From: an uncultured Enterobacteriaceae bacterium
GTDB lineage: Bacteria; Desulfobacterota; Binatia; UBA12015
Direction: 5' to 3'
Length of the DNA: 64,000 nucleotides
NCBI GenBank assembly: GCA_964529315.1
Contig: CAZGUU010000001.1
Span: 2,902 to 66,901 of the forward strand
In this document: piece after piece, positions 5,159 through 51,783 of the stretch
How the letters are laid out: each line of letters begins with the position of its first letter
Numbering within the stretch: the stretch's first letter is position 1
Made by a program: the position numbers and the translations under genes
Notes under the pieces: generated by a model
The model's input: the letters and a program-made list of their open reading frames with translations, nothing else
Database searches by the model: none
Told to the model about the DNA's origin: nothing

Positions 5159-5217
5159 GAGCCCCGGGCGAGCCCCCGGGCGCCGCCGCACGAGCTGTGG
5201 TAGGGTCATAGGGCGCG

Positions 5218-10465: not shown

Positions 10466-10803
10466 GCCGCTATCTTTCGTTCGTGCTCCAGGGGGCGATC
10501 CGCGCCTACCAGATCGCCGTATCGCCGCTCGTCGGACCGGTGTGCCGGTTCTCGCCGAGCTGCTCGGCGTACACCCACGAAGCGATCGAGCGCTACGGGC
10601 CATCTCGGGGTCTCTGGCTGGGCGCGCGGCGCCTGGCCCGCTGCCATCCCCTGAAGGAAGGGGGTTTCGACCCCGTCCCGGACCCGCCGCATCTCGCCTC
10701 CGACCTGCTCGCTTGCGAAGCTAGGGGCAGCGCCTCAACGCGCCGCCTGATCGCGCTGGCGCTTGGTAGGACGAAACGCGCTCCCTCCGAGGTGAGCAGC
10801 TGA
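10462..10803 (+). CDS. yidD: Membrane protein insertion efficiency factor YidD
   Basis: [38 protein letters not shown] overlap with the rnpA stop. Confidence 0.85.
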
Positions 10804-12476: not shown

Positions 12477-12761
12477 GCGGCCAGACGGCGACGGGGTTGC
12501 CGCCGGTCCCGCCCGGAGGGTGAGCGGCGAGGCCACGGCCGACCGGGGACCAGGCCGCCGGAGCCGCATCTCCGCATCGCCCGGTGCGCGCGACCGAGGC
12601 CCGCCCGTCTCGTCGCAGGGCTGGCAGCGATCGCGCGCACGCCGTGCCCCGCCTCGCATCGACGTCGCTGCTCGATGGGACGTCATAGAACGTGGTTTGC
12701 GTTTCTTGCGCTCCAGCACTCCCGTCAGCTTCCGATTGCACGCCGGAGCTCTGCTTCTGGT

Positions 12762-21464: not shown

Positions 21465-21540
21465 GCCGCGCCCAGCCAGCCACGCTCGCGCCCGAAACCA
21501 TCGCGTCAACGAGAGACAGGCGGAAGAGGAGAAGTAGCAG

Positions 21541-25826: not shown

Positions 25827-26948
25827 TCAGGCGGCTCCGGCCGCCATGCGACGCTGGGCCGTCAGGACGAATTCGACGTCGGTCGATCGCTCGGGCCACT
25901 CGACGCGCACCTCTTCACCCCCGACCAGCTGCCGCGAGGCAATCAGGCGCGCCAGCGGCGAAACCAGCCGTCGCTCGACGACCCGCTTCATGGGCCGTGC
26001 TCCGTTCTCGGGGTCCGTGCCTTCCGCGAGGAGCCTGCGGATCGCCTGATCGCTGTAGCGGATCGACAAGGCGACGCCGCGCCGCGCCAGACGTCCCTCG
26101 ACCTTCTGGATCTCGAGCCGCAGGATCTCCTCGAGCTGGCTGGGGCTCAGCCGGTGGAAGACGATCTTGTGATCGATTCGGTTCAGGAATTCGGGGGCGA
26201 ACGTCCGCCGGGCCGTCCACAGAACCGCCTTCTCGACCCGGCGCTGGACCGCGGTCTCGGCTTCCCCGGTTCGACCGACGAACCCCATCGGCGGCGAGAG
26301 AATCTCTCCCAGCGAGCGGCTGCCGACGTTGCTCGTGAGAAAGATGAAGCAGCGCGACAGGTCGACCTCTTTGTTGTTCCCCAGCGTGAGCCTGGCCTTG
26401 TCCAGGACTCCCAGCAGGAGCTGCCAGAGCGAATCGCTCGCCTTCTCGATCTCGTCGAAGAGCAGCAGGGTGAACGGGCAGCTCGCCGTCTGGTGCCGTG
26501 TGATGTTCGCGCTCGAGAGGTAGGGCGTGGTCTCCTGATGCCCGAGGTAGCCCGGTGGCGACCCGATCAGGCGAGAGATCTCGTGGCTGTGGCTGAACTC
26601 CGCGCAGTCGATCTTGAGCATCGCCTTGCGGTCGCCGAAGCACGCGTCGGCGAACGCCTCGACCAGGTTCGTCTTGCCGGTACCGGTCGGGCCAAGGAAC
26701 AGGAAGGAGCCCAGCGGCCGCTCGGAGCTGGCCAGGCCAGAGCACTGGATCTGATAGGCTTCCGTCACCGCATCGACGGCCGGATCCTGGCCGACGACCC
26801 GTTCGCGGAGCGCGCGGCGAAACGCCTCGACGTCCTCGCCGAGGCGGTCGGGGAGAAGCCGCTCTCGGACCCGCTGTGCTCGCCGGGCACCGCGATCGCC
26901 TGCACGCCGCCCCGATCCCGTCCTCTGTCTGTTGCTTTCGGGCACCAC
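25827..26948 (-). CDS. Stand-alone ClpA/ClpB D2-type AAA+ ATPase, with no N-domain, D1 or middle domain
   Basis: Trimmed to a GTG at 26948, preceded by GGAGGA. Walker A GPTGTGKT. Walker [11 protein letters not shown]. Sensor-1 TSN. Sensor-2 GARPMKR. D2-small domain. Aligns closely with the D2 of the ClpB at 55401. The 140 aa upstream in the track ORF are low-complexity. Confidence 0.75.
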   Translation of the reverse strand: MVPESNRQRTGSGRRAGDRGARRAQRVRERLLPDRLGEDVEAFRRALRERVVGQDPAVDAVTEAYQIQCSGLASSERPLGSFLFLGPTGTGKTNLVEAFADACFGDRKAMLKIDCAEFSHSHEISRLIGSPPGYLGHQETTPYLSSANITRHQTASCPFTLLLFDEIEKASDSLWQLLLGVLDKARLTLGNNKEVDLSRCFIFLTSNVGSRSLGEILSPPMGFVGRTGEAETAVQRRVEKAVLWTARRTFAPEFLNRIDHKIVFHRLSPSQLEEILRLEIQKVEGRLARRGVALSIRYSDQAIRRLLAEGTDPENGARPMKRVVERRLVSPLARLIASRQLVGGEEVRVEWPERSTDVEFVLTAQRRMAAGAA

Positions 26949-27063
26949 TCGTCCTCCAACGTAACCAGAAGTCGGCACGGCCGGCCCAACCCTTGAGCCG
27001 CGACGTGAGGACAGGCCGCCTGGCCCCTTCACTCCCCGGGATCTGCGTGCCATAGCCACAGGG

Positions 27064-27804
27064 ATGAAGCTGCACGGCAAGACGGCCTTCGTGACGGGTG
27101 GCTCGCGCGGGATCGGCCGCGCCATCGCGCTCGCCTTCGCCCGAGAAGGGGCAGACGTCGCCCTGAGCTTCCGCCGCGATCTGGCCGCTGCCCAGGCCAC
27201 GGTCGAGGAGATCCGAGCCCTGGGCCGGCGTGCGAGCCACCACCAGGCGGACGTCGCCGACCCCGCGGCCGTCGAGCGCATCTTCCAGGAGGCGGGCGCC
27301 ACCTTCGGCTCGTTCGACGTCGTCGTCGCGAACTCGGGCATCGCCTCTCGGACGGCGTCGGTGACGGACACCGACGTCGCCTACTGGAAGCGGGTTCTCG
27401 AGGTGGATCTCGACGGCGTCTTCTACACCTGCAAGTGGGGCGTCCCGTTGCTGCGAGCGCACGGCAGCGTGATCATCATCTCGTCGATCGGCGCCGACCT
27501 CTGCGCGCCCTTCGGCGCGCCCTACTACGTCGCCAAGGCGGGGGCCAATGCCCTGACCAAGGTCCTGGCCAAGGAGCTGGCTTTCGAGCAGAAGCGCGCC
27601 AACTGCATCGCCCCGGGCGTGATCGCTACCGACATGGGCAACCGCCTCGTGGCGGCCTTGGGCGAGGGCGTCCTGAGCAGCATCCCGCTGGGTCGGCTCG
27701 GCCAACCCGAGGACATCGGCGCCGCAGCCGTGTTCCTCGCCTCGGACGAGGCGAGCTTCATCACCGGCAAGATCCTGCGCATCGACGGCGGCGCGTTCAT
27801 GTAG
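27064..27804 (+). CDS. SDR-family oxidoreductase (3-oxoacyl-ACP reductase-like)
   Basis: TGGSRGIGRAIA (TGxxxGxG). Catalytic YxxxK in PYYVAKAG. 246 aa. Confidence 0.85.
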   Translation: MKLHGKTAFVTGGSRGIGRAIALAFAREGADVALSFRRDLAAAQATVEEIRALGRRASHHQADVADPAAVERIFQEAGATFGSFDVVVANSGIASRTASVTDTDVAYWKRVLEVDLDGVFYTCKWGVPLLRAHGSVIIISSIGADLCAPFGAPYYVAKAGANALTKVLAKELAFEQKRANCIAPGVIATDMGNRLVAALGEGVLSSIPLGRLGQPEDIGAAAVFLASDEASFITGKILRIDGGAFM

Positions 27805-27970
27805 CCGCGGATCGGGGCCGAGGGCCGCCGAGCTCCCGGCAATCGCCCGGGGCATTTCCTGTGCTTCCCACGCGTGTGCTCGCGCCATCCTCTGGAGTCC
27901 CGCGAGCAGGCCCGTTTTCGGGTACCTTGCCTGGCTGACTCGGCGAACCCATTGACAATGCGCGTCATAT

Positions 27971-27989
27971 TATACTAAACGTTCAGTAT
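27971..27989. promoter_or_regulatory. 18-bp imperfect palindrome ATACTAAACGTTCAGTAT (8 of 9 pairs) running into the TetR start codon; a candidate TetR operator. TTGACA lies about 14 nt upstream
   Basis: Seen directly. AT-rich island in GC-rich DNA. My coordinates are uncertain by 1 nt. Confidence 0.45.
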
Positions 27990-28632
27990 GGCTTCCCCGG
28001 CAACGGGACGAGCGCGTCGATCCGAGCCTGGTCGAGACGGCCTGATTGCCACCGCGATCGACTGCTTCGCTCGGCAAGGCTACGCCGGAACTTCCATCGA
28101 CCGCATCGCCCGAGCGGCCGGGGTCACCAAGGGAGCGCTCTACTACCACTTCCGCGACAAGGAGCACCTGCTCTTCGAGGCCGTGAAGGAGCGTATCGGG
28201 GCCTTCGAGCGGTACGTGGTGCAGCACGTGGAAAAGGCAGAGGACCCCGTGGGGGCGCTACGCGAGATCGCCTCGATCTGTGCCAAGAACGCGGCTCGCG
28301 ACAACCACCGGCGCTTCATCCTGACGTTGATGGTCGAGGCCCTCGACACGAACGCGGCACTCTCGGTCGAGTTTCGCGAAATGCTGCACCGCTTTCGCAG
28401 CTTTCACCGCCACCTGATCCGCAGGGGCGTGGAGCGCGGCCTCTTCCGCGCAGACATCGATGTCGCCGTGGCCGCGGAGACCTTCGTCAGCGGGATCCTC
28501 GGTGCCGAGATCCAGTACTACCAGGATCCGCAGGCGATCGACATCGATCGATCGCTGGACCTTCACGTGGAGCAGTTCCTCGCCTGGATTGCCGTGCCTC
28601 CTGCGCGGCACCAGCCCGGAGAAGGATCGTGA
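27988..28632 (+). CDS. TetR/AcrR-family transcriptional regulator
   Basis: HTH GYAGTSIDRIARAAGVTKGALYYHF. First gene of a TetR-ACAD-ACAD block. Confidence 0.85.
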   Translation: MASPATGRARRSEPGRDGLIATAIDCFARQGYAGTSIDRIARAAGVTKGALYYHFRDKEHLLFEAVKERIGAFERYVVQHVEKAEDPVGALREIASICAKNAARDNHRRFILTLMVEALDTNAALSVEFREMLHRFRSFHRHLIRRGVERGLFRADIDVAVAAETFVSGILGAEIQYYQDPQAIDIDRSLDLHVEQFLAWIAVPPARHQPGEGS

Positions 28633-31738: not shown

Positions 31739-31831
31739 AGTCGACCGGGACGATCCGAACTCCTCCCGGCGGCCGTCTGGCCGCCCCACGCAGGGACGTG
31801 ACAGGCTGCCCGCTTGCGGTAGCCTCGAGGC

Positions 31832-39086: not shown

Positions 39087-41612
39087 TCAGCTCGCAGGCT
39101 CGGGACCACCTCCATCCTCCTCCAGCTCGCCGCTCGCCACGTCATCCTCGACCTCGCCGCCGTTGGCCGACGGCTCCGCTGGAGATCCGACGCGCTCTTC
39201 CATGTCTGCGACCCGTGCCAGGCTGACGACTCGCTCGCCCTCGTCCACCTCGAGCAGCTTCACGCCTTGCGTGTTCCGGCCGATCACGCGGATGTCGCTC
39301 GCTCGCAGGCGGATCAAGCGTCCGCGGTCGGTCACCAGCATCACCTCGTCGTCTTCGCCGATCTGGGCTACCCCGACCACGCCTCCGGTCTTCTCCGTGA
39401 CCTTCATCGTGATGATGCCCTTGCCTCCGCGCGACTGCAGCCGGTACTCCTCGAGCCCGCTGCGCTTTCCCTGCCCGTTCTCCGACACCGAGAGCACCGC
39501 AGCCTGCGGCGAGAGGATGTCGACGCTCACGACCTCGTCTTCTGGATCGAGCGAAACGCCCCTCACTCCACCGGCGCTCCGGCCCATGGCGCGGACGTCG
39601 GATTCCCGGAAGCGGATCGCCTGTCCGCCCCGGGTCGAAAGCAGTACCTCCTGCTCGGGGTCGACCAGCCGCACCCCGACGAGCCGATCCCCGTCGTCGA
39701 GACCGATGGCGATGATGCCTGCCGCGCGCCGGTTCGCATACGCCATCAGGTCGGTCTTCTTGACCATGCCCCTGCGGGTCGCGAAGAGCAGGTAGCGGCC
39801 GGGCTCGAACGCGGCGATGGGCAGGAAGGCCGAGAGCTTCTCGTCCGCTGCGAGCTGCAGCAGGTTGACGATGGCCTTGCCTCGCGCGGTGCGACCCCCT
39901 GGCGGGATCTCGTGCACCTTGCGCCAGTGGACGCGACCCGAGGTGGTGAAGAACAGGATGCTGTCGTGGCTCGAGGCGACGAAGAGGTGCGCGATGAAGT
40001 CGGCCTCGCGGGCTGGCGCGCCCACCTTACCACGCCCGCCGCGACGCTGGGCTCGGTACTCCGAGGCTGCGATGCGCTTGATGTACCCGGCGTGCGACAC
40101 CGTGACCGCCATGTCCTCGCGCGGGATCAGATCCTCGACGGAGAGATCCTCCGCCCTGCCGACGATCGTCGTGCGCCGGCGGTCGCCGTACTGCCCTCGG
40201 ATCTCGATCAGCTCGCCGCGGATGATCGCGTCCACCTCGGCGCGGTCCGCCAGGATGGCCTTGAGGCGGGCGATCAGGGCTTCCGTCTCGCGGTGCTCGT
40301 CGAGGATCTTGTCGCGCTCGAGGTTGGTCAACCGCTGCAGCCGCATGTCCAGGATGGCCTGCGCCTGGATCTCGGAGAGGCCGAAGCTCGCCATCAGACC
40401 CGAGCGCGCGGCGGCCGGGCTCGCCGACGAGCGGATCAGGGCAATGACCGCGTCGAGGTTCTCGAGGGCGATCTTGAGCCCGTCGAGGATGTGCAGGCGC
40501 TCTTCGGCCTTGCGCAGGTCGAACACGGTCCGCCGGGTCACCACCTCGCGGCGATGGTCGAGGAAGACCTGCAGCGCGTCGCGCAGGTTGAGCAGGCGGG
40601 GCCTGCCCTCGACGATCGCCAGCAGGTTGACGCCGAAGGACTCCTGCATGGCCGTCAGCTTGAACAGCTGGTTCAGGACGACCTGGCCCACGGCGTCCTT
40701 CTTGAGCTCGATCACGATCCGCATGCCATCGCGATCGGACTCGTCGCGCAGGTCCGAGATGCCCTCGATCTTCTTCTCGTTGACCAGCTCGGCGATGCGC
40801 TCGATGAGGCGCGCCTTGTTCACCTGATAGGGGATCGCGTCGACCACGATGGTCTCGCGGCCGGTGCGTGCGTCCTCCTCGATCTCGGCGCTGGCCCTCA
40901 TCTGGAGGATGCCGCGTCCCGTGGCGTAAGCCTCGCGAATGGGTGCGCTGCCGCAGATGAACCCACCCGTCGGGAAGTCGGGCCCGGGGATCCAGCGCAT
41001 CAGGTCGAGCGGCGTGAGCGAGGGATCGTCGAGCAGCGCGATGCAGCCGTCCACCAGCTCGGTCAGGTTGTGCGGCGGGACGTTGGTGGCCATCCCGACG
41101 GCGATGCCGGAGGCCCCATTGAGGAGTAGGTTGGGGATCTTGGCCGGAAGGACGACCGGCTCGCGCTCGGTGTCGTCGTAGTTGGCCGCGAAGTCGACGG
41201 TTTCGCGGTCGATGTCGGCCAAGAGCTCGCTCGCGATGCGTGCGAGGCGGATCTCCGTGTAGCGCATCGCCGCCGGCGCGTCGCCGTCGACCGAGCCGAA
41301 ATTGCCCTGCCCGTCTACCAACGGGTAGCGCATCGAAAAATCTTGCGCGAGGCGGACAATCGTGTCGTACACGGCGGCGTCGCCGTGCGGGTGGTACTTG
41401 CCGATCACGTCTCCGACGATGCGAGCCGACTTCTTGTAGCCCCGGTTCCAATCGACCCCGAGCTCGTTCATCGCGTAGAGCACGCGCCGGTGGACGGGCT
41501 TGAGGCCGTCGCGAGCGTCGGGAAGAGCGCGGCCGATGATCACGCTCATTGCGTAGTCCATGTAGGACTGACGCATCTCGTCTTCGATGCTGATCGGGAT
41601 TCGGTCGGCCAT
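39087..41612 (-). CDS. gyrA: DNA gyrase subunit A
   Basis: 841 aa. N-terminus [43 protein letters not shown], active-site Tyr region, acidic C-terminal tail. Confidence 0.97.
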
Positions 41613-41638: not shown

Positions 41639-44089
<2,451 letters not shown>

Positions 44090-44207
44090 TTAACAGTATT
44101 TGCCGAAAGGTCGCTTATAGCAGACCGAGACGCCGAAAAGAAGCCCCGGCCAGGCCCGCGCACACGCTCCAGCGAACCCCTGCGATCCATCTCGGAATCG
44201 CCGCGGA

Positions 44208-45317
44208 TCAGAGTCGCATCGGCATCACGACGTAGCGGTAGGAGTCGTCTTCGTCGCTGCGGATGACCCCTGGGCTGGCATCGTCGATCAGCGAGATCTC
44301 GACCCGCTGGTCGTCCGGCAACACGGCCAGAACGTCGGTGAGATAGCGCGAGTTGAAGCCGACGGCGAGCTCGGCTCCCTCGTAGGCGACCTCGATCTCT
44401 TCGCTCGCCTCGCCGAAGTCCGGGCTGCTCGCCGAAACCGCGAGCTGTCCCGTGGTTGCTTGGAGCTTGACACCCCGCGCTCGGTCGCTGGCCACGACCG
44501 AAACTCGCCGCAATGCGGAGAGCAGCTCGCTCTTGTCGATCGCGATCTGGTGGCTGGCGGCCTTGGGAATCACCTGCTCGTAGTTCGGGAACTCGCCATC
44601 GACCAGACGCATGACCAGCTCGACGTTGGCCCGCACTACTCGCGCCGTGTTGCTGCCCACCGACAGGCGAGCCCTCCCTTCCTCGCCGACGATGAGCTTC
44701 TGGACTTCCACGAGGCCCTTTCGCGGCAGGATGGCGCCCTTCGTCTCGCCGCTTCCCTGCGCGCTCCCCTCCTCGACGAGAGCCAGACGATGGCCATCGG
44801 TGCCGACCAAGCGCAGGACGTTCTCGCTCTTCGACAGCAGAACCCCGCCCAGGTGCGGCCGGGTCTCGTCGGTAGACACGGCAAACAGGGTGCACTCGAT
44901 CATGCGAGCCAGCGTGTCGCAGGGCAGATCGACGACGACCCCGTCCTTCTCGTCCACTTGCGGGAAGCTCGGGAAGTCGCCTGCAGGCAGCCCGACCAGC
45001 TTCACGCGCGAGCGGCCCGACACGATCTCGACGAAGTGGTTCTCGAGCAGCCGCACCGTGACGTCACCCGGCTTCAGCTCGCGCACGAACTCGAAGAGCT
45101 TGCGCGCGCCGACCGTCGCTGCGCCCGATTCCCGGATCTTCGCCGTGCACCTGCGGCGGAGGTGCACCTCGAGGTCCGTCGCTGCGATCGACAAATCCTT
45201 GCCCGAGGCATCGAGCAGGACATTGGCGAGGATCGGAAGCGTATTGCGCCGCTCGACCACGCCCTGCGTGAGCGAGAGGCCCTGCAAGAACTCTCCTCGG
45301 TCGACCGAGAACTCCAT
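44208..45317 (-). CDS. dnaN: DNA polymerase III beta sliding clamp
   Basis: Trimmed to MEFSVDRGEFLQGLSL, with the strong RBS GGGGGGGAAG upstream. 369 aa, three-domain clamp. Confidence 0.93.
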   Translation of the reverse strand: MEFSVDRGEFLQGLSLTQGVVERRNTLPILANVLLDASGKDLSIAATDLEVHLRRRCTAKIRESGAATVGARKLFEFVRELKPGDVTVRLLENHFVEIVSGRSRVKLVGLPAGDFPSFPQVDEKDGVVVDLPCDTLARMIECTLFAVSTDETRPHLGGVLLSKSENVLRLVGTDGHRLALVEEGSAQGSGETKGAILPRKGLVEVQKLIVGEEGRARLSVGSNTARVVRANVELVMRLVDGEFPNYEQVIPKAASHQIAIDKSELLSALRRVSVVASDRARGVKLQATTGQLAVSASSPDFGEASEEIEVAYEGAELAVGFNSRYLTDVLAVLPDDQRVEISLIDDASPGVIRSDEDDSYRYVVMPMRL

Positions 45318-45387
45318 CACTTCCCCCCCGTTGGACGAGCACCCCCCGTGAGCGTGCTGCACCGCACTCCCCACGTGCCGCCGTCTT

Positions 45388-45584
45388 CTCTATTCTTCTT
45401 TATACTATTCAAATAGAGGTAGTAGAGCCTGTGGACACGGTGGACAAGGGATTCAACGCCGCGGTTCCCGGTCGCATTCACCTGTGGGAATGAAGGCGCC
45501 GCTGCCATCGGGCGCGAAGATCGCTCTGGTCGGCCGTGGATCTCCCCAGGTTGAGGGCGAGCAGCCCACAGGGAATCCACAAGC
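45388..45584. other. oriC: Candidate oriC core in the dnaA-dnaN intergenic region: a 40-bp AT-rich segment followed by tandem DnaA-box-like 9-mers
   Basis: TCTATTCTTCTTTATACTATTCAAATAGAGGTAGTAGAG (45388-45428). TGTGGACAC (45430-38) and GGTGGACAA (45439-47) abut each other. GAATCCACA at 45573-81. Each is 7-8 of 9 to TTATCCACA or TTGTCCACA. Confidence 0.45.
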
Positions 45585-45652
45585 GCTCGAAGAAGGAGCC
45601 AGTCCCCGGACCGAAGCCCTCTACGCTTCGCCGGGGCCGTGGCAGCGTCGCG

Positions 45653-47002
45653 TCAGGATGGCTGCTTCGTCAGGCTGCTCTCGAGCCCCTGGATGGTCGC
45701 GCGAAGCGCTGGGTCCCCGTCCAATCGGCGTGAGATGACGGTCTGGGCGTGGATCACCGTCGAGTGATCCCGCCCTCCGAACTTCGCGCCGATGACCGGG
45801 AAGGACGCGGCGACGAGCTTGCGCGACAGGTACATGGCAATCTGTCGCGGCACCGAGAGGTTCTGTGTCCTGCGCTTCGACTTGATCTCCGTCAGAGAGA
45901 GGCCGAAGTGCGCGCAAACCGCCTGCTGGACGTCGTCGATCGTCAGCTCCCGGCGGCGCTCGCGAAGGTGAGGCTGCAGCACGCTGCGTGCGAAGGGAAC
46001 CGTGATCTCGGCCCGTTGTAGAGAGGCCATCGCCCCGAGGCGCGTCAGGGCACCCTCGAGCTCGCGGACGTTGGTGGTGATCTCGGCGGCCATGAACGAG
46101 GCCACCTCCTCCGAGAGCGAGAACCCCTCCATCTCGGCCTTCTTTTGCAAGATGGCGACCCGGGTCTCCATCTCGGGAGCCTGGATGTCTGCGGTGAGGC
46201 CCCACTCGAAACGGTTGCGCAGGCGCTCCTCGAGGTCGGGGATGTCCTTGGGGAACTTGTCGGAGGTCAAGATGATCTGGCGGTGGCCTTCGTGCAGCGT
46301 GTTGAAAGTGTGGAAGAACTCCTCCTGGGTCCGCTCGCGGCCGGCGAGAAACTGGACGTCGTCGATGATCAGCAGGTCGACCTGACGCAGGCGGTTCTTG
46401 AACTCGTCCATGCGGTCGCGCCTGAGGGACGAGATCATGTCGTTCACGAACGACTCGCTCGCCATGTAGACGATCTTAGCCGAGGGGTTCCGCTTGAGGA
46501 CCGAGTGGCCGATGGCATTCACCAGGTGGGTCTTTCCCACCCCGACCCACCCGTAGACGAAGAGGGGGTTGTAGTGCTCGCCCGGCCGTCCCGCGACGGC
46601 GAGGGAAGCCGCGTGTGCGAACTCGTTGCTCGGCCCGACGACGAAGTTCTCGAAGGTGTAGTGCGGAACCAGATTGCCGACGCGAGCCGCCGGGCGTCGC
46701 ATCGCGGTGCGCGGCAGGGCCTCGGACTGGGTCTCGGCGGGCGCCGCGAAGAGCTCTCCCTGGTTGCCGTCGTCGACGCGAAAGACGATCTCCGGAGGCG
46801 GCTCGCTGCCGACTCGCAAGCAGGTCTTGATGGCGCCCAGGAAGTTGCGAGCGACCCAGTCGCGATAAAACTTGCTCGGTGCGCTGATGCACACCTTTCC
46901 GGCCCCGACCGAGGTGAATCGCAGGGGCTTGATCCAGGTCTCGAAGTTCCCCTCGCCGACCCGGTCGCGCAGGGCGACGCGGGCCTCCTCCCAGCTTTCC
47001 AT
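45653..47002 (-). CDS. dnaA: Chromosomal replication initiator protein DnaA
   Basis: 449 aa. AAA+ GxxGxGKTHL. DNA-binding domain IV at the C-terminus. RBS GAGGGG. Confidence 0.97.
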   Translation of the reverse strand: MESWEEARVALRDRVGEGNFETWIKPLRFTSVGAGKVCISAPSKFYRDWVARNFLGAIKTCLRVGSEPPPEIVFRVDDGNQGELFAAPAETQSEALPRTAMRRPAARVGNLVPHYTFENFVVGPSNEFAHAASLAVAGRPGEHYNPLFVYGWVGVGKTHLVNAIGHSVLKRNPSAKIVYMASESFVNDMISSLRRDRMDEFKNRLRQVDLLIIDDVQFLAGRERTQEEFFHTFNTLHEGHRQIILTSDKFPKDIPDLEERLRNRFEWGLTADIQAPEMETRVAILQKKAEMEGFSLSEEVASFMAAEITTNVRELEGALTRLGAMASLQRAEITVPFARSVLQPHLRERRRELTIDDVQQAVCAHFGLSLTEIKSKRRTQNLSVPRQIAMYLSRKLVAASFPVIGAKFGGRDHSTVIHAQTVISRRLDGDPALRATIQGLESSLTKQPS

Positions 47003-47031
47003 ACGGGTTACCCCTCTGCCGGCAAGAGGTT

Positions 47032-47185
47032 ATTCACAGGAATGTGCACACCTGTGGATGATCGAATATTCCACCCGAATTCCGGTGGTTTGCACCCACC
47101 AGCGCCAGGCCATTTTCACCTCGAACGACACTCTCTGAAGGGCGCCCGTTGGTTCGTGTTCCGGGACGGGCGGCCGAGATCCACA
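47032..47185. promoter_or_regulatory. DnaA-box-like motifs in the dnaA 5' region (autoregulation and/or a second oriC candidate), followed by an A-rich stretch at 47200-47400
   Basis: TTATTCACA (47032-40, 8/9). TGTGGATGA, which is the reverse of TCATCCACA (47055-63, 8/9). AGATCCACA (47177-85, 7/9). Confidence 0.45.
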
Positions 47186-47409
47186 CCGTGAGAAAACAAT
47201 GAGCCGTGGGATGCGAGAAAATGTCGTGCCTGCAGGCGCGAGGGCGCTTCTCTAGCGCCCGACCTTTCGCAGTTGCAAGAAGAAAAGCGAAAGCAGATGA
47301 GAAAGCTCCCGATATTGCACGAGAAAAAACTTCCGAGCGCGATTTCCTTGACGCTGCTGCGGGAGGTTGGTAAGCGCCGGTCTCCCTTTTCCCCATTGGA
47401 CATCGCAAC

Positions 47410-50682: not shown

Positions 50683-50748
50683 GGGGCGGCCACGGCGACT
50701 GGCCTCGCGAGGGCGTAGGCCTACAGGACGGGTGGAGGGGGTGCTGTT

Positions 50749-51783
50749 GTGGAGAACGCAGCCTGGTCCCGGACCGCTCGAGAGCTACCGGCCGGAGCCC
50801 CACGCGGGGGCGATGCACAGCAGGTCGCCGATAGCCCCGCGGGCGACCTCGAGCCAGCGGGTGCTCTGGCAGTCTCGCTAGCTGCCAAGAAGGATGTGGT
50901 GCCCGCGGTTGCCCGAGTCGCCGCAGCCGGGCACTTCATCGGGCGCCGCCGGACGTTCTTCGCCGCGGTCCCCATCGCGTTAGTCAAGCCGAACCCGCAC
51001 CAGCCGCGGCAGTACTTCGACCCGACCTCTCTGGCCGAGTTGGCCGAGTCGATCCGCGAGAGGGGCCTGCTGCAGCCGATCATCGTTCGCCGAGGGCCGG
51101 ATGGCGAATACACGCTGGTCGCCGGGGAGCGCCGACTCCGGGCAGCCGAGCTGGCCGGGGTTGCCCTGGTCCCGGCGATCCTGAGCGACGACGACCTGCT
51201 CGAGGTGGCTCTCGAAGAGAACGTGCAACGGGAGGATCTCTCGCCCCTGGAGGAGGCCGAGGCTCTGGCGGTGCTCGCACAGGAGCGCGGCCACTCCCAT
51301 GCCGAGCTGGCGCAGGTGATCCACAAGAGCCGCCCGTACGTCTCCAATACGTTGGCGCTCACCCGCCTGCCCGACGACGTGAAACACGAGTATTTCAGAG
51401 AGGGTAGGACTGTTTCGCGCGAGATCATGATCAATATCGCCCGCCAGGAGAGCCCCGAGCAGATGCGATCCCTATGGCGGCGGGTGAAGCTTCAGTCGAT
51501 TTCGGTGCGCAGCTTCCGAAGCGCCGAGCAGGGAAAGACGACGGCGTCTCCCGAGGCGGGCATCCTGCGCTCTGCGAGACGACTGGATCGAGCGCTGCGG
51601 TCGCTCCCCGAGGAGGCGAGGCTCAACCGCGACCAGGTCGTCGGCCTCGAGCGCGCGCTGCGGCGTACGATTCGCAGGGCCGCGGCGCTGGTCGACGAAC
51701 TCGCCTCCGGGATCCGCACCGTGGAGGGTCCCGCCGACCATTGCCCCCCGAAGCTGCAGCCACGCCGAGCGGGAGGAGAATGA
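50749..51783 (+). CDS. Orphan ParB/Srx-family protein: ParB N-domain with GERRLRAA and an HTH, but a C-terminus unlike ParB and no adjacent ParA
   Basis: VPIALVKPNPHQPRQYF..LLQPIIVRR..LVAGERRLRAAELAG..VALEENVQREDLSPLEEAEA..HKSRPYVSNTLAL aligns block-for-block with the ParB at 17963. GTG start with RBS GGAGGGGG. Confidence 0.8.
   Translation: MENAAWSRTARELPAGAPRGGDAQQVADSPAGDLEPAGALAVSLAAKKDVVPAVARVAAAGHFIGRRRTFFAAVPIALVKPNPHQPRQYFDPTSLAELAESIRERGLLQPIIVRRGPDGEYTLVAGERRLRAAELAGVALVPAILSDDDLLEVALEENVQREDLSPLEEAEALAVLAQERGHSHAELAQVIHKSRPYVSNTLALTRLPDDVKHEYFREGRTVSREIMINIARQESPEQMRSLWRRVKLQSISVRSFRSAEQGKTTASPEAGILRSARRLDRALRSLPEEARLNRDQVVGLERALRRTIRRAAALVDELASGIRTVEGPADHCPPKLQPRRAGGE

Follow-up and report, generated by a model that had tools for sequence, protein, structure and literature searches.

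A candidate chromosomal origin with a Bacillus-type layout in the dnaA-dnaN spacer of an uncultured high-GC lineage

Genes and AT-rich segments around dnaA

The window, as we call the whole 64-kb stretch of DNA analyzed here (mean GC content of 68.5%), carries dnaA, dnaN, gyrB and gyrA on its minus strand. Pfam searches identified dnaA, coding for a replication initiator of 449 aa, at 45653-47002 (domains DnaA_N, Bac_DnaA, Hda_lid and Bac_DnaA_C); dnaN, coding for a beta sliding clamp of 369 aa with three of three DNA_pol3_beta domains, at 44208-45317; gyrB at 41639-44074; and gyrA at 39087-41612. A class-III aminotransferase gene, also assigned by Pfam, is divergent from dnaA and runs on the plus strand from about 47410. 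The start codon of dnaN, an ATG at 45317, agrees with the dnaN starts of related loci. A preliminary description of this DNA had placed a candidate oriC between dnaA and dnaN, and the Pfam assignments confirm the location: the 335 bp at 45318-45652 are exactly the intergenic spacer between both genes, which puts them next to dnaA, the ancestral position of an origin. An Rfam search of 45318-45652 gave no match at E <= 1.

Uncultured bacteria with the labels Candidatus Binatia, Thermodesulfobacteriota or Deltaproteobacteria provide the nearest homologues of the window's DnaA (53-74% identity). We compared 13 distinct related loci (L001, L002, L081, L082, of which L083 is an identical second copy, and L084-L091). 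The order atpB-atpI-aminotransferase / dnaA-dnaN-gyrB-gyrA is conserved between the window and its relatives: the 12 loci reached via close DnaA homologues share atpB-atpI-aminotransferase / dnaA-dnaN-gyrB, and in L002 the comparison covered dnaA-dnaN-gyrB. The window also contains yidC, mnmE and, downstream of atpB and 4 kb from dnaA, a parB gene (50719-51783), beside which no parA was identified; the order atpB-atpE-parB is common to the window, L090 and L091.

When we scanned the 64 kb for 41-bp windows with a GC content of 40% or less, only four segments were retrieved: one at 27945, one upstream of gyrB (44050-44125), one in the dnaA-dnaN spacer (45373-45439) and one upstream of dnaA (47030-47070). 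In the segment upstream of gyrB lies a 41-mer (27% GC) that ranks second in the window for low stability; the segment abuts the gyrB start codon, which has no obvious Shine-Dalgarno sequence beside it; we assume that this segment may be a supercoiling-sensitive promoter or leader of gyrB. The one at 27945-27995 lies in a divergent intergenic region, between a truncated ClpB-like AAA gene (25827-27380, minus strand) and an acyl-CoA dehydrogenase gene (28418, plus strand), and holds a TTGACA...TATACT arrangement that is likely a strong promoter.

A box-and-trio module in the dnaA-dnaN spacer

Within the spacer, the segment at 45388-45428 had been singled out as strikingly AT-rich, and indeed its GC content is 31.7%, against 68.5% for the window, with the string TCTATTCTTCTTTATACTATTCAAATAGAGG at 45389-45419. 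We delimited the putative DNA unwinding element as 45384-45425 (27% GC), which includes the tandem 10-mers TCTTCTCTAT and TCTTCTTTAT. Ranked by nearest-neighbour energy, the 41-mers of the 64 kb have their least stable member at 45385-45425, with -43.8 kcal/mol for a mean of -65.5 and a standard deviation of 3.6. It lies at one edge of an array of DnaA boxes, as the unwinding element of an oriC should. The AT-rich tract is short, around 40 bp, and consists of a pyrimidine block followed by a purine block; the same succession, with a GAGAAGA-like purine block, was found in every relative inspected for it (L001 and L081-L091). The element of the window also contains a 7-bp inverted repeat, CTCTATT / AATAGAG. 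A conserved hairpin or cruciform between the pyrimidine and the purine blocks was rejected, with z-scores from -0.8 to +0.9 in six folds compared with shuffled sequences.

Two DnaA boxes in tandem lie next to this element, in line with the two abutting box-like 9-mers initially reported on the plus strand (TGTGGACAC at 45430-45438 and GGTGGACAA at 45439-45447). Read on the minus strand, in the direction from dnaA to dnaN, they are a distal (upstream) box, TTGTCCACC (45439-45447), and a proximal one, GTGTCCACA (45430-45438), which abuts it in the same orientation. Both are one mismatch away from TTGTCCACA and two from TTATCCACA, and hence within the two mismatches from consensus allowed for a basal unwinding system (BUS). 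The distal box aligns with TTGTCCCCG or TTATCCCCG in the relatives and, at the same position, with the boxes TTATCCACA and TTATCAACA of two Bacillaceae loci. At 45453-45461, 7-15 nt upstream of the distal box (columns 5-15 of alignment A1), there is a GGACTTGA-like motif, GGCGTTGAA in the window, which is conserved in most relatives and fits poorly to either a DnaA box or a -35 element.

Weaker boxes fill the rest of the spacer. Two of them, ATTCCCACA (45483-45491) and AGATCCACG (45535-45543), have three mismatches each and are oriented toward the unwinding element on the minus strand; a CCACAGG-type box occurs near the place of ATTCCCACA in the relatives. Beside the dnaA stop codon there is a pair in the opposite orientation on the plus strand (45562-45581), formed by CAGCCCACA (45562-45570) and GAATCCACA (45573-45581), 11 nt apart from start to start; the latter is the further box that had been noticed at first, found here at 45573-45581. 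Every relative has a TGTGG...TGTGGA pair near the 3' end of dnaA, spaced by about one helical turn where measured. Altogether, the 335 bp hold two boxes at one mismatch, one at two and three at three, a cluster of the kind sought in an oriC.

Regarding the specificity of these matches, only nine boxes with at most one mismatch from TTATCCACA or TTGTCCACA exist on both strands of the window. Four of the nine flank dnaA, namely the abutting pair of the dnaA-dnaN spacer and two others located immediately upstream of the gene. With a limit of two mismatches the spacer has only three boxes, around the top 3% of 335-bp windows, and the spacer upstream of dnaA has six, a count that discriminates weakly given that chance alone yields up to 4-5 boxes per 400 bp in coding regions; we discarded box counting at this limit as a criterion.

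Between the boxes and the AT-rich core there are 15 bases that the preliminary description had overlooked and that read as DnaA-trios. For the comparison we used the BUS layout as defined in previous reports (PMC8287927, PMC10721633). From dnaA to dnaN, the minus strand of the core reads TTGTCCACC GTGTCCACA GGCT CTA CTA CCT CTA TTT GAA TAG TAT AAA GAA GAA TAG AG, where GGCT is a GC-rich spacer of 4 bp (45426-45429). The trios are therefore 3'-GAT GAT GGA GAT AAA-5' on the plus strand (45411-45425; 5'-CTA CTA CCT CTA TTT on the minus strand), and overlap the unwinding element. In known BUS modules the spacer between box and trios measures up to 16 bp, most often 13 bp from the better or upstream box (PMC8287927, PMC6669920); here the proximal box is separated from the first trio by 4 bp, and the distal box by 13 bp. 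As in the BUS layout, a co-oriented pair of boxes is followed by CTA repeats on the same strand, with the orientation seen in the Bacillaceae loci. A strict search for tandem boxes, a spacer of 2-6 nt and CTA-led trios gave a single match in the window, at 45447, and none in 200 dinucleotide-preserving shuffles. We also considered a mirrored second BUS on the dnaN side, with the purine block as trios, and rejected it by inspection: its sole candidate box, CTCCCCACG, has four mismatches, and the GGGAGTGG motifs of the relatives are the Shine-Dalgarno sites of dnaN.

Each of the 13 distinct relatives has the module in the part of the spacer nearest dnaN, as do the two Bacillaceae loci. In the relatives it takes the form TTRTCCMCN, NNNTYCACA, 4 nt, CTA CTN CTN..., a T- or pyrimidine-rich block and a purine block, and the remainder of the spacer diverges among them (alignment A1). 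Two sets of columns in A1 do not vary in its 13 sequences, the ACA that ends the proximal box and TAC at the first trio, and both Bacillaceae sequences agree with them.

The published search rule for BUS modules asks for a run of three or more trios centred on adenine, (NAN)x3, and this adenine matters in Bacillus subtilis (PMC10721633). In the window, four of the five trios have it but no more than two are consecutive, since the third trio is GGA. Nine of the 13 relatives follow the rule directly after the spacer; the exception at the third trio is common to the window, L082 and L085, and L086 breaks the run at the second trio. Other traits that would set the clade apart are a distal box rich in C (TTGTCCCCG in most members), a proximal box rich in T (NNTTTCACA) and a conserved downstream purine block, GAGAAGA. 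Together with the tolerance for a non-adenine centre at the third position and the GGACTTGA-like motif, these could be the marks of a modified unwinding module, and one could argue that this Binatia-like clade relies on a lineage-specific accessory factor or on a different register of the DnaA filament, which we regard as a rather unlikely option.

To contextualize the trios, we aligned the DnaA of the window with that of B. subtilis in PDB 8btg, the cryo-EM structure of the BUS. The match has an E-value of 1e-125 and the numbering of both proteins is identical from residue 109. Among the residues reported to contact the trios (PMC10721633), where N187 touches the central adenine, E183, N187, I190, E223 and E228 are identical, and I193L, N196D, R202K and K222R are conservative changes. 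The arginine finger, R264, is also identical. Hence, this DnaA keeps the residues for contacting single-stranded DNA and trios that a BUS demands.

With the AT-rich segment 67-108 nt upstream of the dnaN ATG, one could also argue that it is the promoter or 5' leader of dnaN, and that the tandem boxes are a DnaA operator acting on this gene with no origin function. DnaA is a known transcription factor, and dnaN might need its own promoter given the weak terminator-like hairpin that follows dnaA (45614-45599). Terminator-like structures in the spacer are nevertheless at chance level, and a scan of the dnaA-dnaN spacer for sigma-70-like promoters gave no -35/-10 pair, the hexamers checked by hand being poor. 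Conservation among the relatives concerns the pair of boxes, the spacer of 4 nt and the CTA repeats, all in a fixed register, and does not extend to -35 and -10 hexamers. The conserved trio-contacting residues of DnaA and the skew switch described below also favour an origin over a dnaN promoter alone, and such a promoter would be compatible with origin function. We consider it hardly probable that the segment serves dnaN only.

Strand composition and the two spacers flanking dnaA

The cumulative G-C count of the window has its minimum at 45410, a base-level position that partly reflects the local pyrimidine-then-purine pattern and the composition of dnaA itself. On its left side the skew amounts to -0.035 and on its right side to +0.032; when 1-kb blocks were permuted 10000 times, the observed minimum was never reached. 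Within the 64 kb there is, thus, a GC-skew switch with the polarity of an origin. The composition of codon positions ties skew to the coding strand, so we controlled for gene orientation. Genes on the plus strand have more plus-strand G on the right than on the left, at third and at first-plus-second codon positions, and those on the minus strand behave likewise. If the origin is set here, the coding-strand skew is +0.033 for co-oriented genes versus -0.038 for head-on genes (Mann-Whitney, p = 0.0004), whereas strand alone does not separate it (p = 0.13). Gene orientation does not explain the change of sign.

Of the 34 called genes, 20 are head-on to an origin at this position, including glmS, dsbD, yidC, mnmE and atpA on the left flank. 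Nearly all genes in 1-34000 are on the plus strand (glmS-like at 1766, dsbD at 5212, yidC at 10770, mnmE at 12477, atpA at 21538, acyl-CoA dehydrogenase at 28418 and DsbH at 31823), head-on to a fork leaving 45.4 kb, yet with a composition that resembles the lagging strand. DsbH is co-oriented with dnaA in L090 and L091 and inverted relative to dnaA in the window, which points to a rearrangement breakpoint near 34 kb in this genome. As a separate matter, the head-on orientation of the left flank could be the trace of a recent rearrangement beside the origin. An origin near yidC and mnmE (10-14 kb) was rejected, as this region has no box cluster, AT-rich element or skew switch.

With a view limited to 64 kb, head-on genes on the left flank and a genome rearranged near 34 kb relative to L090 and L091, the match in the spacer might be taken for a coincidence or a relic, with replication starting elsewhere in the genome. 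We find this extremely improbable: the module is kept across relatives whose DnaA identity is as low as 53% and at most 74%, the shuffled sequences never produced it, and the change of skew sign is robust to gene orientation.

The skew is less informative on which side of dnaA the origin lies. In a scan of gene boundaries the best switch point was 45652 (t = 4.55), followed by 47409 (t = 4.05), which fits almost as well. Protein composition confounds the comparison of gene-level skew between dnaA and dnaN in 12 loci; at third codon positions, dnaA is less negative than gyrB. In L090, which comes from a contig of 8.1 Mb, the dnaA-dnaN spacer contains the G-C minimum of the 21 kb; this is not so in L091. 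With a base-level minimum that is partly compositional and a confounded test between dnaA and dnaN, the skew supports an origin at the dnaA locus without separating the two spacers that flank the gene. The preliminary description proposed a GC-skew analysis of the whole genome; the minimum at 45410 agrees with its reading within the 64 kb covered here, which is no proof of a genome-wide minimum.

The spacer upstream of dnaA (47003-47409) has to be weighed, then, as the true unwinding site, in which case the boxes between dnaA and dnaN would only regulate dnaN or assist the loading of DnaA. DnaA boxes are nowhere denser in the window than in this spacer, two of its six having at most one mismatch, and its local GC content falls to 39-47%. 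Three boxes form a cluster at 47030-47061, 30-60 nt upstream of the dnaA start, which reads TCATCCACA gg TGTGCACAT tcc TGTGAATAA on the minus strand. This arrangement is conserved in the 12 relatives examined out of 12, and the boxes of several of them match TTGTCCACA perfectly. Against these points, in the sequences of the window and of the relatives we read no trios beside the cluster and no BUS-type layout, and the only match of the strict search is the one at 45447. The duplex is also far less unstable than in the dnaA-dnaN spacer, with -52.0 vs -43.8 kcal/mol. Furthermore, the boxes lie close to the dnaA start and below a promoter-like block that is conserved, where autoregulatory sites are classically found. 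This block, TTTTCTTCTTGCAA-N18-TAGAGA at around 47255-47300, lies upstream of the triple boxes and is conserved in all relatives examined. According to these data, we judge it improbable that unwinding takes place upstream of dnaA.

The boxes and the promoter-like block upstream of dnaA can be read as a promoter and autoregulatory operator of this gene, and possibly also as the distal half of a bipartite origin. Clusters of DnaA boxes are present on both sides of dnaA, as in bipartite oriCs. Judging by the arrangement of boxes, the origin may be bipartite, or those at 47030-47061 may only autoregulate dnaA.

Proposed unwinding and comparison with known origins

Several observations support the candidate oriC of the preliminary description: it lies between dnaA and dnaN, it has boxes in tandem and the DNA of lowest duplex stability in the window, the skew changes sign there, and the module is conserved in relatives. 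The nearby parB and the presence of yidC and mnmE in the window are likewise in its favour. From the sequence, we consider it likely that the dnaA-dnaN spacer, built as a Bacillus-type BUS, is where the chromosomal oriC unwinds, and this module may work with the box cluster upstream of dnaA. We infer that DnaA would bind, the DNA unwind and the helicase be loaded as follows. Domain IV of DnaA would bind the co-oriented boxes TTGTCCACC and GTGTCCACA (45447-45430, minus strand). From this anchor, an oligomer of ATP-DnaA would grow toward dnaN along the plus strand and capture the trios 3'-GAT GAT GGA GAT AAA-5' (45425-45411). As the plus strand is stretched, the adjoining segment of 27% GC (45384-45425) would open, and the helicase would be loaded there for bidirectional replication. 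The four weaker boxes toward dnaA would feed or stabilise the DnaA oligomer. The triple-box cluster upstream of dnaA might do so as well, which would make the origin bipartite.

With these observations, an origin can be annotated with good support in an uncultured high-GC lineage, the closest named relatives of which are MAGs of Candidatus Binatia and Thermodesulfobacteriota; a text search of the literature retrieved no paper naming Binatia or Binatota together with oriC. They add comparative support to the idea that the unwinding module made of a box pair and trios is ancestral and widespread, and supply natural variants for strand-separation assays, such as a third trio centred on G and degenerate, C-rich boxes. 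In practical terms, anyone who assembles or orients these MAGs is given a fixed start coordinate and the replichores.

The preliminary description had compared the locus with the oriC of Actinobacteria. Actinobacterial origins, such as those of Streptomyces and Mycobacterium, belong to high-GC genomes, lie in the dnaA-dnaN spacer and have a box consensus of the TTGTCCACA type, as in the window. These origins have many more boxes (around 13-19), longer spacers and, as far as is known, no pronounced AT-rich block, while the spacer of the window measures 335 bp, has a sharp AT-rich element and contains two strong boxes. Besides, the nearest relatives of its DnaA carry Candidatus Binatia, Thermodesulfobacteriota or Deltaproteobacteria labels and are not Actinobacteria. 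The closest analogue is the incC region of Firmicutes, with the boxes and trios of a Bacillus-type BUS. To our knowledge, the DnaD/DnaB helicase-loading elements of Firmicutes are not expected in this lineage.

The oriC of Helicobacter pylori is also instructive. There, the interaction with oriC2 depends on supercoiling. Its oriC1 and oriC2 form a bipartite origin that flanks dnaA and contains a BUS (PMC8287927, PMC8235120). Like the window, it has box clusters on both sides of dnaA and the trio-bearing module downstream of the gene; unlike the window, its genome is AT-rich.

The likeness is greatest with B. subtilis, in which the incC/BUS part of oriC lies in the dnaA-dnaN spacer with its unwinding element on the dnaN side (Richardson 2016, 2019; Pelliciari 2021, 2023). 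Both have two co-oriented boxes, a spacer of about 4 bp and 3'-GAT-5' trios that run into an AT-rich tract, and incAB is a second box cluster upstream of dnaA, as in the window. The two Bacillaceae loci that we aligned (L035 and L024) have the same orientation and register. In the Peribacillus locus the module reads TTATCCACA TATCCACA AGAC CTA CTA CTA TTA CTA CTA, followed by an A/T run, and in the Siminovitchia locus TTATCAACA TATCCACA GCCC CTA CTA CTA TTA CTA, in both cases with the strand, order and register of the window. The differences from incC are the high-GC form of the boxes (TTGTCCACA), the GGA in the third trio, and an AT tract of about 40 bp made of pyrimidine and purine blocks. 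In addition, incC has seven boxes (PMC6669920), and the window has fewer strong ones, around six with the weak ones included. Overall, by its layout the locus looks like an ordinary chromosomal origin of the Bacillus type, a sound annotation that brings no surprise.
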